Source: a plasmid
Sequence record: NZ_CP066438.1
Reading direction: 5' to 3' (one strand)
Length of the DNA: 38,373 nucleotides
The position numbers and the translations under genes were made by a program. The notes under the pieces are model-generated. The model saw nothing but the letters and a program-made list of their open reading frames with translations, did not search any database and was not told the origin of the DNA. Shown here piece by piece: positions 23,388 through 26,008 of the stretch (positions are counted from its first letter, which is position 1; every line of letters starts with the position of its first letter).

Positions 23388-23519
23388 ATGGACTATAAAA
23401 ATGCTCGTAATTTTCTTCTGAAGTCTGAAAGCTATTTGAATGCTCAGCTACCAGAATATATTAGTTTTGACGAAACTTTAAAATCTGCTAAAAAAGTTTT
23501 AACTTCGCCGTTTGTATAA
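23388..23519 (+). CDS. 43-aa ORF ending exactly at the IS30-family insertion point (hypothetical; possible upstream partner/remnant of the RT locus)
   Basis: MDYKNARNFLLKSESYLNAQLPEYISFDETLKSAKKVLTSPFV*; stop taa at 23517-23519, one base before the IS inverted repeat. Confidence 0.25.
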   Translation: MDYKNARNFLLKSESYLNAQLPEYISFDETLKSAKKVLTSPFV

Positions 23520-24555
23520 TTAAGCGAGACAAATAAAAAAGCCATTTATGTTACACTCAAATTGTAATACCCGCTAAAGCATACAAGGAGAGTGAACATA
23601 AATGACTTATACCCATCTTACACCAAACGAGCTTGTAATGATAGAAGCATATTTTCATCAAGAAACTCCGGTTGCTATCGTTGCGAAGCAGCTTAAACGT
23701 GGACGCCAAACAATTTACAATGTCTATAACTTTCTCAAATGTGGTGGAACAGCACTTGAATACTTTGAACAATACAAAGAAAATAAGCGACGTTGTGGGA
23801 GAACCGAAATCATTTTTCCTGCTGAGGAAAAAGAATACATTGAAAAAAGATCAACTGAAGGTTGGACCCCAGACGTCATTATTGGCCGTGCAGAGCGAAC
23901 CTTCTCTTGTTCAATAAGTACCCTCTATCGCCGGTTTAAGACGGGAGAATTCAATGTTTTACATTTACCGATGCAAGGAAAACGAAAACCAAATGGTTAT
24001 AAGGAAAAACGTGGAAAACAGGCATTCAAAAGAAATATTTCTGAACGTAAAAAAGATTATGTCGTTTTCGAAGAAGAATTTGGACATTTAGAGGGTGATA
24101 CGATTGTCGGCATCCACCATAAAAGTGCCGTCATCACACTCGTTGAGCGACTTTCAAAAGCCATTATCGTCTTGAAACCAGAAGGCCGTAAGGCAGTTGA
24201 TATTGAAAATTCGATTAATGAATGGCTTCAATCCGTACCCAAAAATCTTTTCAAATCAATTACCTTTGATTGTGGAAAAGAATTCTCTAATTGGAAAAGT
24301 ATTAGTAATACGAATGATATTGATATTTATTTCGCAGACCCAGGAACGCCTTCCCAACGGGGATTAAATGAACATTCAAACGGACTCCTCCGAAAAGATG
24401 GACTACCAAAAGAAATGGACTTCAACCAAGTCAATCAAGGATTCATCTCATCCGTTGCGTCCAAAAGAAACCATATCCCTAGAAAATCACTAAATTACCA
24501 AACACCATTAGAAGTTTTTTTGAGTTACGTAAATGGAAAGTTTTGTCTCGCTTAA
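23520..24555 (+). mobile_element. IS30-family insertion sequence (~1.03 kb), inverted repeats ttaagcgagacaaa... / ...ttgtctcgcttaa, possible 2-bp AT duplication
   Basis: Terminal 14-bp perfect inverted repeat at 23520-23533 and 24542-24555; single 317-aa transposase. Confidence 0.75.
23602..24555 (+). CDS. tnp: IS30-family DDE transposase, 317 aa
   Basis: N-terminal HTH, C-terminal DDE region (HLEGDTIVG...DCGKEFS...GLNEHSNGLLR). Confidence 0.85.
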   Translation: MTYTHLTPNELVMIEAYFHQETPVAIVAKQLKRGRQTIYNVYNFLKCGGTALEYFEQYKENKRRCGRTEIIFPAEEKEYIEKRSTEGWTPDVIIGRAERTFSCSISTLYRRFKTGEFNVLHLPMQGKRKPNGYKEKRGKQAFKRNISERKKDYVVFEEEFGHLEGDTIVGIHHKSAVITLVERLSKAIIVLKPEGRKAVDIENSINEWLQSVPKNLFKSITFDCGKEFSNWKSISNTNDIDIYFADPGTPSQRGLNEHSNGLLRKDGLPKEMDFNQVNQGFISSVASKRNHIPRKSLNYQTPLEVFLSYVNGKFCLA

Positions 24556-24556
24556 T

Positions 24557-26008
24557 TTGACAAATAATACTTCAAAAAAAAACCAACCGAAAGATATAAA
24601 AGATATTGTAGATACACGAATGTATAAAGAACGTGATGACTTAAACTATACGCTTATTATCAATAAAGATGGAAACTATTCATGGCGTCCTCTCGTTCTA
24701 CTACATCCTATTCTATATGTAGATTTGGTTAATTGTCTCACTAAAGAAGACCATTGGGAGGAGTTAAAAAAGAGGTTTAGTGAATTTAAAAAAGATAAAA
24801 ATATTAACTGTTATTCTATACCTGTTGAAGCTTCCAAAGGTTCAAAAAGGACAGATCTTGGTGAAACAATACTAAACTGGTGGGAATATTTTGAACAAAA
24901 AAGCTTAGCTCAGAATATTAAATACCAATATTGCATGTTTACTGACATCGCTGATTGTTATCCATCAATTTATACTCACTCTATAACATGGGCCATGTAT
25001 GGTAAAGAAAAAGTTAAAAATGATGAAAATAAGTGTTCGGGCTCACTTGGCGATAAAATAGATAAAAAAATATCTGGAATGCAACACAATCAAACAAATG
25101 GTATCCCTCAGGGTTCCGTTCTTATGGATTTTGTAGCAGAGATCGTTCTAGGGTATGTTGATTTGAGATTATCGAAAGAATTAAAAAAATTAGAAAATTT
25201 AAAAGATTACAAAGTACTCAGATATAGAGATGATTATAGAATATTTTCAAATAATCGTAATGATTTGGAACAAATTATGAAAGTGTTATCAGAAGTCTTA
25301 TATGATTTAAATTTTAAGTTAAATTCTAGTAAAACAAAATTATCAGATGATATTATCATAGATTCTATCAAAAAAGATAAGCTCTATTGGGAAGAAATTA
25401 AGGCAAGTATAAGAATGAATGCCACAAACTTAGATGGTGATAGAGAAATTCGTTATAGTATAAATTTACAAAAACATTTATTGGAAATAAAAAAGTTAGC
25501 AGATAAGCATCCTAATTCAGGCCAATTGAAAAAAGCACTTTCTGAGTTTAATAAAGAACGCATTATTAAAATCACTTCAAAGCCGAACGATCTTTTACCA
25601 CTTATTGGTATCCTGGTAGATATCATGATAAATAACCCGGGTTCTTTGCCGCAGTGTGTCTTAATTATAGGGCAGTTATTAAATTTCGAAAATGAGAGTA
25701 AGGCTAGAGAAATAGTTGAAATGATTATAAACAAATATGCTTTAAAGCCAAATACTGAATTTATGATGATATGGTTTCAAAGATTGACCACCATTTTTGG
25801 AGAAATGTTTGATAGTGTTTTATCATCCGAATTTGTATCTAAAATCAAAGATCCTGTCTCTAATCAGATGTTTTCTGTAGACTGGCTAAATGAAGATGCT
25901 AAGAAATCTTTTTATGAAGGGACCATTAAAGACGAAGAGAAATATATTAAAATGAGTAAGAAAATATATATTACTGAATTTGATGATTTTAATGATTATC
26001 CTTTTTAA
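24557..26008 (+). CDS. Abi-type reverse transcriptase (AbiA/AbiK-like), 5' end abutting or interrupted by the IS30-family element
   Basis: RT motifs in order: FTDIADCYPSIYTHSITW (motif A region, like AbiK ...YHTLYTHSIPW), GIPQGSVLMDFVAEI (motif B QGxxxS), VLRYRDDYRIF (YxDD), LNSSKTKL (motif D/E), then a ~230-aa C-terminal extension. Native reading frame is open from the first base after the IS; first internal ATG at 24619. Confidence 0.7.
   Translation: MTNNTSKKNQPKDIKDIVDTRMYKERDDLNYTLIINKDGNYSWRPLVLLHPILYVDLVNCLTKEDHWEELKKRFSEFKKDKNINCYSIPVEASKGSKRTDLGETILNWWEYFEQKSLAQNIKYQYCMFTDIADCYPSIYTHSITWAMYGKEKVKNDENKCSGSLGDKIDKKISGMQHNQTNGIPQGSVLMDFVAEIVLGYVDLRLSKELKKLENLKDYKVLRYRDDYRIFSNNRNDLEQIMKVLSEVLYDLNFKLNSSKTKLSDDIIIDSIKKDKLYWEEIKASIRMNATNLDGDREIRYSINLQKHLLEIKKLADKHPNSGQLKKALSEFNKERIIKITSKPNDLLPLIGILVDIMINNPGSLPQCVLIIGQLLNFENESKAREIVEMIINKYALKPNTEFMMIWFQRLTTIFGEMFDSVLSSEFVSKIKDPVSNQMFSVDWLNEDAKKSFYEGTIKDEEKYIKMSKKIYITEFDDFNDYPF

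Follow-up and report, generated by a model that had tools for sequence, protein, structure and literature searches.

Two abortive infection (Abi) reverse transcriptases (RTs), AbiK of Lactococcus lactis (PDB 7R06/7R07) and AbiA (PDB 8OZ7), are known to synthesize DNA in a protein-primed and template-independent manner. Abi-P2-type enzymes are RT-like and perform template-free DNA synthesis that begins from a tyrosine of their own, an example being that of the Escherichia coli prophage P2-EC30 (PDB 7R08; Figiel et al. 2022, PMC9508834). In AbiK, Tyr44 serves as the primer of DNA synthesis, and in Abi-P2 the substitution Y61F, at a residue located in the α2–α3 loop of the fingers, abolishes DNA synthesis, whereas Y46F does not (PMC9508834). 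Here we analyzed a 38,373-nt stretch of plasmid DNA (sequence record NZ_CP066438.1; hereafter the window), in which three plus-strand open reading frames (ORFs) of 53, 317, and 491 aa lie across positions 23358–26008. We conclude that the first and the last of these are the two pieces of an Abi-P2 gene split by an insertion sequence (IS) of the IS30 family, and that, with a probability of roughly 0.85, this split has left the gene without function.

The 491-aa product carries the RT motifs CMFTDIADCYPSIYTHSITW, FTDIAD (motif A), SIYTHSITW, NGIPQGSV, YRDD, and SSKTK, and matches Pfam RVT_1 with 60 bits, which bears out the catalytic motifs that a first-pass annotation of the window had read in this frame (24533–26008). 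The non-RT C-terminal tail described there as ~230 aa long is also real, since ~220 residues follow the palm domain and are helical in the structural model. The same annotation had proposed an enzyme of the AbiA/AbiK class; the Abi RT class stood, but the family did not. Indeed, the PADLOC-DB AbiP2 profile matched the product with 537 bits (E 1e-161, positions 41–485 of 489) versus ~100 bits for AbiK. The runners-up were RT_UG14 (191 bits), Drt6 (168 bits), and AbiK (98–100 bits), the AbiK matches being confined to the palm and part of the helical region, and AbiA was absent among the 25 best PADLOC families listed. NCBIfam models for the named DRT types all scored far under their cut-offs with this product. 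Two further candidates were rejected on their profiles, namely a group II intron RT (group_II_RT_mat, 51 bits versus a cut-off of 300) and a retron RT (Retron St85 RT, 30 bits versus a cut-off of 235).

Structural comparison, for which we used the 527-aa protein reconstructed across the insertion as detailed below, yielded the same assignment. This protein matched PDB 7r08 chain A (Abi-P2) with an E-value of 2.6e-79 over residues 9–522 in HMMER, and a profile built from 29 family sequences recovered 7r08 with 5e-127, AbiK (7r06) reaching 3e-17 over ~145 palm residues only. Its AlphaFold model (predicted local distance difference test, pLDDT, 90.4; predicted template modeling score, pTM, 0.90) shows a bilobal fold with fingers and palm, and a C-terminal all-helical domain replacing the thumb. 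The best structural match of the model in Foldseek was again 7r08, with template modeling (TM) scores of 0.82/0.88 and a root-mean-square deviation of 2.8 Å; the DRT6/DRT4-type structures 9wy8 and 9vdo scored ~0.6, AbiK 0.47–0.56, AbiA 0.44–0.47, and RT structures from group II introns, retrons, and diversity-generating retroelements (DGRs) at most 0.34. With these values, and with the group II intron and retron profiles under cut-off, placement of the enzyme among group II intron, retron, or DGR RTs is rejected, in agreement with the first-pass annotation. The catalytic residues D174, D269, and D270 are all retained and show no variation in the homologue alignments. Identity with AbiK or AbiA was rejected, as neither gave a best or full-length match by profile or by fold. 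Together, these data firmly support assignment of the RT to the Abi-P2 family within the UG/Abi defense class.

The locus protein and Abi-P2 of P2-EC30 have in common a full-length sequence match, the bilobal fold without a thumb, the LPxY motif with the priming tyrosine, and YRDD, to which the intact relatives examined (L007 and L009) add a single-gene organization. They differ in sequence (~32% identity by structural alignment), in the N-terminus, which is ~27 residues shorter at our locus, and in residence, here a plasmid of a Gram-positive host versus a P2-like E. coli prophage. The main difference is that the gene is IS-interrupted after codon 50, leaving a catalytic ORF without the priming tyrosine. 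AbiK and AbiA share with the locus RT the UG/Abi class, the palm motifs, and a helical C-terminal region, but their sequence alignment to it is limited to the palm and their TM scores to 0.44–0.56. DRT6, UG14, and DRT4 (UG15), the next-best matches by both profile and structure, share the SIYTHSI-W block after motif A, but score much weaker and are unlike the locus RT in their N- and C-terminal regions. The locus is a new but broken member of the known Abi-P2 family, and its novelty is low. In the literature, we found no paper combining Enterococcus faecium, plasmid, and AbiP2, and the RT mentions in pRUM and vanA plasmid papers refer to group II introns.

We reconstructed the gene across the insertion as follows. 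The 53-aa ORF matches positions 2–48 of the PADLOC AbiP2 profile (E 2.6e-12) and can be aligned to the N-terminal ends of full-length homologues. When we queried 5.8 billion proteins with the joined sequence, we obtained full-length relatives of 517–546 aa, among them P0002 (527 aa, 84% identity), P0003 (75%), and P0005 (67%). Eleven homologues run unbroken through ...LKSAKKxLTSKKxxPKD... at the break site, where our left piece ends in ...SAKKVLTS and the right piece resumes with TSKKNQPKDI. Deletion of the IS together with one ACTTC joined the two pieces into one reading frame of 1584 nt, which is free of internal stops and codes for 527 aa. The P0002 locus, found uninterrupted on a Logan contig (L007), has a single ACTTC at the site; its DNA at the junction reads TTTTAACTTCAAAAAAAAACC (...GCTAAAAAAATTTTAACTTCAAAAAAAAACCAACCGAAAG...) and is base-for-base that of the reconstructed junction. 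The upstream small ORF is the first 50 codons of the RT, that is, its own N-terminus, and the 491-aa 'RT' is a chimera in which native residues 49–527 are preceded by 12 residues encoded by the IS. These findings firmly place the IS inside one ancestral in-frame 527-codon gene, between codons 50 and 51. The resulting layout is as follows.

23358–23519, plus strand: N-terminal fragment ORF, 53 aa, TTG start; the alternative ATG at 23388 gives a 43-aa version
23358–23507, plus strand: native RT codons 1–50, then three codons from the IS (PFV) and the TAA stop at 23517–23519
23457–23459, plus strand: TAT codon of the predicted priming Tyr34, in the LPEY motif, on the 53-aa fragment
23502–23506: left copy of the target-site duplication, ACTTC, by direct reading (CTT at 23503–23505 if the IS is 23506–24569)
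23507–24568, plus strand: IS30-family insertion sequence, 1062 bp (or 1064 bp as 23506–24569)
23602–24555, plus strand: IS30-family DDE transposase gene, 317 aa, RefSeq WP_000222571.1 'IS30 family transposase'
24533–26008, plus strand: chimeric IS-RT ORF, 491 aa, stop at 26006–26008, RefSeq WP_000443455.1 'RNA-directed DNA polymerase'
24533–24568: IS-encoded start of the chimeric ORF, 12 codons (MESFVSLNLTNN), after which native residues 49–527 follow
24569–24573: right copy of the target-site duplication, ACTTC
24569 or 24575: point at which native RT codons resume (T49/S50, duplicated, or K51)
24944–24946 and 25223–25234: D174 and Y267-R-D-D270 in the RT palm and fingers of the chimeric ORF
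~25352–26005, plus strand: C-terminal helical domain of the RT, from about residue 310 to the end

Both the TAA at 23517–23519 and the ATG at 24533 are IS sequence; the upstream stop had been located correctly at the outset, though it does not belong to the native gene. The 40-mer GCTAAAAAAGTTTTAACTTCAAAAAAAAACCAACCGAAAG represents the empty, IS-free site, and the peptide MESFVSLNLTNNTSK is a candidate proteomic marker for a product of the RT body. The insertion site is adjoined by an A9 homopolymer (24574–24582, codons S50-K51-K52-N53) that is kept in the intact homologue L007; this tract is a potential slippage hotspot within the RT gene and possibly part of an AT-rich target preferred by the IS.

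What the insertion severs became evident from the alignment of the reconstructed protein with 7r08 chain A (HMMER), in which LPAY61INF of Abi-P2 pairs with LPEY34ISF, making Tyr34 the predicted counterpart of the priming Tyr61. Tyr34 is invariant in 112/112 aligned full-length homologues, which equals the conservation of the catalytic aspartates. In the model it sits in a loop (residues 27–37) between helices 23–26 and 38–47, within a segment (11–50) modeled at pLDDT 91–96, and the IS enters directly after helix 38–47. The 53-aa stub accordingly holds fingers helices α1–α3 along with the Tyr34 loop, and the 491-aa catalytic ORF, which starts at native residue 49, is devoid of both. The tyrosine is thus present at the locus, but encoded on the severed fragment and absent from the RT ORF. 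As the priming tyrosine and a well-packed part of the fingers lie off the catalytic polypeptide, the gene is most likely non-functional.

The interrupting element was confirmed as a member of the IS30 family, as first proposed, by a match of its 317-aa transposase to NCBIfam NF033563 (transpos_IS30; 250 bits, cut-off 80). Megablast with 23507–24568 against PLSDB placed it at 938 sites in 416 plasmids, and in 380 records the match spanned 80% or more of the 1062-bp query. Six copies fetched from these (L001–L006), which represent four other genomic contexts, all share a common sequence that begins with GCCGTTTGTATAATTAAGCG and ends with ...TTAATTTGACAAATAAT, corresponding to 23507–24568. In the fetched copies, the base before the IS is always C and the base after it always A, for which reason the element may instead be 23506–24569 (1064 bp) with a 3-bp CTT duplication; both readings of the ends (1062 bp with ACTTC, 1064 bp with CTT) give the same pre-insertion sequence. 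The target duplication, judged from the locus copy, is therefore 3–5 bp in size, and consistent target repeats were not found in the flanks of the other six copies. The right flank of L006 equals that of L001 while their left flanks differ, both copies residing on E. faecium megaplasmids, which suggests IS-mediated recombination between copies.

The terminal inverted repeats of the element are imperfect, with 21 matches over the first 27–28 positions, and enclose a perfect 16-bp inner core, AATTAAGCGAGACAAA, at 23518–23533 and 24542–24557. This core had been taken for the IS ends in the first-pass annotation, hence its placement of the element precisely at the 5' boundary of the RT, between two genes, with the first native RT codon at 24557. 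The real ends (23507–24568) lie after codon 50, and native codons resume at 24569 or 24575. An IS30-family terminal repeat, cgccgattgtaaaattaagctagacaaata, reported on enterococcal vanA plasmids is closely similar to that of the element found here (PMC2920175). In its DDE transposase, its length of ~1.06 kb, its ~27-bp repeats beginning (C)GCCG, and its short target duplication, the element resembles IS30-family elements of enterococcal plasmids, and it displays no unusual feature. An inward TATAAT (23515–23520) in its left end and an outward TTGACA (24557–24562) in its right end would be 16–17 bp apart if the ends were joined head to tail with a 2–3 bp spacer, and the joined ends would form the consensus junction promoter of a circular transposition intermediate. 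Promoters of this kind are usual in the IS30 family. This promoter concerns expression of the transposase, not of the RT.

We then asked how widespread the disrupted gene is among sequenced plasmids. With a 2.9-kb query, 59 PLSDB records matched over at least 80% of its length and showed the same or nearly the same arrangement; most were E. faecium vanA or pRUM-like plasmids, and one came from E. faecalis. A 400-bp empty-site query against PLSDB gave no contiguous match in any of 76 records. Consistently, in a tblastn search of the same database with the reconstructed protein, every Enterococcus match (64 records) starts at residue 49 or 51, and some plasmid copies are shortened further, to residues 49–300, 49–275, or 49–216. 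An exact 30-mer across the empty site was found in neither metagenome nor viral contigs, and the search of 5.8 billion proteins contained no full-length protein more than 84% identical. P0002/L007, at 84% amino-acid identity, is the only close intact relative; a scan of genome contigs yielded just two relatives, of 68% and 39%, and intact plasmid-borne relatives in PLSDB are distant (tblastn; Pediococcus 41%, Klebsiella and E. coli 33%).

Other events around the RT remnant were also recorded. The RT body of L012 (NZ_CP089322.1) contains ISEfa4, with tnpA and the RNA-guided TnpB, at 1952–3521, IS256 lies just downstream of the RT at 3142–4314 of L011 (NZ_CP023796.1), and IS16 is found downstream of the RT in NZ_CP035644.1. 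The commonest database version of the truncated RT, P0001 (a cluster of 159 sequences), has 487 aa and departs from the window copy by an in-frame 4-residue deletion, EIVE, after ...ESKAR; it is a second allele of the remnant.

We also assessed whether the RT body could be expressed from its present position. A hybrid promoter borne by the IS was rejected: the outward TTGACA is there, but no −10 partner was found at 16–18 bp, where the flank is the A9 tract, and a consensus scan detected no plus-strand promoter at the right end of the IS driving the RT. If the catalytic part is transcribed at all, this would have to occur by read-through from the transposase gene, which is possible. Between this gene and the RT, no terminator-like site was found on the plus strand. 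The ATG at 24533 is preceded by only a weak GAG 8 nt upstream, and a convincing Shine-Dalgarno sequence is absent.

In the course of events that best explains these observations, an ancestral single 527-codon gene encoded an Abi-P2-family defense polymerase until an IS30-family insertion between codons 50 and 51 split it into the 53-aa stub and the 491-aa ORF. The latter begins at the ATG in the right end of the IS and carries the palm (D174, D269, D270) and the helical domain, and the RT remnant would since have been carried passively on the vanA backbone, like the adjoining IS1216-truncated hsdM. Loss of function is proposed because the insertion removes an invariant tyrosine, essential in Abi-P2, along with packed N-terminal helices. 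Several points weigh against this interpretation. The 491-codon ORF has stayed open, and its sequence is 100% identical among dozens of plasmids collected on several continents, although these plasmids are only decades apart, so that its identity says little about selection. The missing terminator before the RT body and the weak GAG mean that the truncated protein could be made. Furthermore, the priming role of Y34 is predicted by alignment, and an N-truncated Abi-P2 may keep activity or use another hydroxyl.

Among the alternatives, the one that survives best holds that the 491-aa IS-RT chimera is made by read-through and still works as a polymerase or defense protein, with another priming residue or by a priming-free action. 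We consider it unlikely. Its catalytic residues and helical domain are complete, its ORF is intact across many plasmids, and no plus-strand terminator is predicted ahead of it. Nonetheless, such a protein would be devoid of Y34, invariant in all 112 homologues and matching the essential Y61 of Abi-P2, and of three confidently modeled N-terminal helices; its ATG has no convincing Shine-Dalgarno sequence before it, the nearby TTGACA finds no −10 in the flank, and in some plasmid lineages the ORF has been disrupted or shortened further.

Much less probable is a naturally split enzyme, in which the 53-aa fragment, expressed from the native promoter, reassembles with the body or donates Tyr34 in trans as a 'terminal protein'. 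Both ORFs are retained and open, the break falls at a secondary-structure boundary just after helix 38–47, and trans protein priming is known from the phi29 and adenovirus polymerases (PMC9508834). Against this, AbiK uses a tyrosine in cis, located in a loop of its own chain (PMC9508834), the last residues of the fragment are IS-derived and the first 12 of the body are foreign, and there is no evidence of selection for an arrangement that any IS hit at that position would leave behind. It is similarly hard to credit that a split Abi-P2, consisting of the peptide and an IS-expressed body, still makes protein-linked DNA, or that rare IS excision acts as an on/off switch. If the latter were true, excision would provide a switch for a costly abortive infection gene on a hospital-adapted plasmid.

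The weakest alternative, an IS lying between two separate genes (the 43-aa ORF and an RT natively starting at 24557) or within an ancestral gene already frameshifted, as initially annotated, is refuted, since the IS ends 13 bp further out on each side than it supposes, the small ORF is homologous to Abi-P2 residues 2–48 and is the N-terminus of the RT, and the corrected junction keeps the reading frame and equals that of the uninterrupted L007. Ending the IS at the inner repeat core with an AT duplication does yield ...TSPFV-stop-FDK-stop, that is, a stop and a change of frame as originally calculated, but this outcome is due to the misplaced boundaries and carries no information on the ancestral gene.

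The split Abi-P2 gene matters mainly as a correction, in that the databases list WP_000443455.1 as an intact RT, although it is a fusion of IS and RT sequence that has lost the N-terminal 48–50 residues, including the predicted priming tyrosine. Defense-system finders will probably score the 491-aa product as an Abi-P2/DRT hit on a widespread vanA/pRUM-like backbone of hospital E. faecium, and surveys that count it as working phage defense would overestimate the defense content of these plasmids. As a natural N-terminal truncation that already exists, the locus could also be compared with the reconstructed allele to study the priming loop in a Gram-positive Abi-P2. Its biology is most likely ordinary IS-driven gene decay, abundant on such plasmids.

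As described in the first-pass annotation, the window derives from a vanA plasmid (VanA, 801 bits; Tn1546 genes present) with toxin-antitoxin (TA) modules, namely a Phd/Txe(YoeB) (Axe-Txe-like) pair and a MazE-like/RelE-like pair, and with an orphan hsdM; copies of IS1216 and IS1251 were also found. Downstream of the RT lie the following features.

26346–27824, plus strand: hsdM, type I restriction-modification methylase gene (TIGR00497, 379 bits, profile positions 5–503 of 515)
27847–28533, minus strand: IS6 transposase, beside hsdM

From 27793 onward, the native 3' end of hsdM gives way to the IS1216 terminal repeat GGTTCTGTTGCAAAGTTTTAAAT, and the last 10 codons and the stop of the gene are IS-derived. 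Neither hsdS nor hsdR was seen among the window ORFs checked or listed for the matching reference plasmid, and the ORFs scanned further downstream of hsdM had no NCBIfam match or matched TA or IS families only, so that a complete type I set (hsdM, hsdS, and hsdR) is not found here. The 'defense islet' postulated for this region is made of two broken genes, the IS-damaged remnants of the RT and of hsdM.

In the two intact relatives with readable neighborhoods, no conserved partner gene of the RT was found, nor was the RT-hsdM adjacency. The RT of L009 (Atopostipes) is flanked on both sides by sugar-metabolism genes and that of L007 neighbors an HNH endonuclease and a NikA-like gene; an RT standing alone among unrelated genes fits a single-gene system.

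Much of the window appears to consist of IS-bounded modules. It contains four minus-strand ORFs of 228 aa (1657–2343, 11376–12062, 27847–28533, and 29062–29748) and two of 430 aa, also on the minus strand (9164–10456 and 14383–15675). For one of the 228-aa ORFs, identity as an IS6-family transposase was confirmed; the other 228- and 430-aa ORFs were putatively assigned to IS1216 and IS1251, by size match to the annotation of the reference plasmid, and one copy of the 430-aa ORF lies between apparent vanS and vanH.

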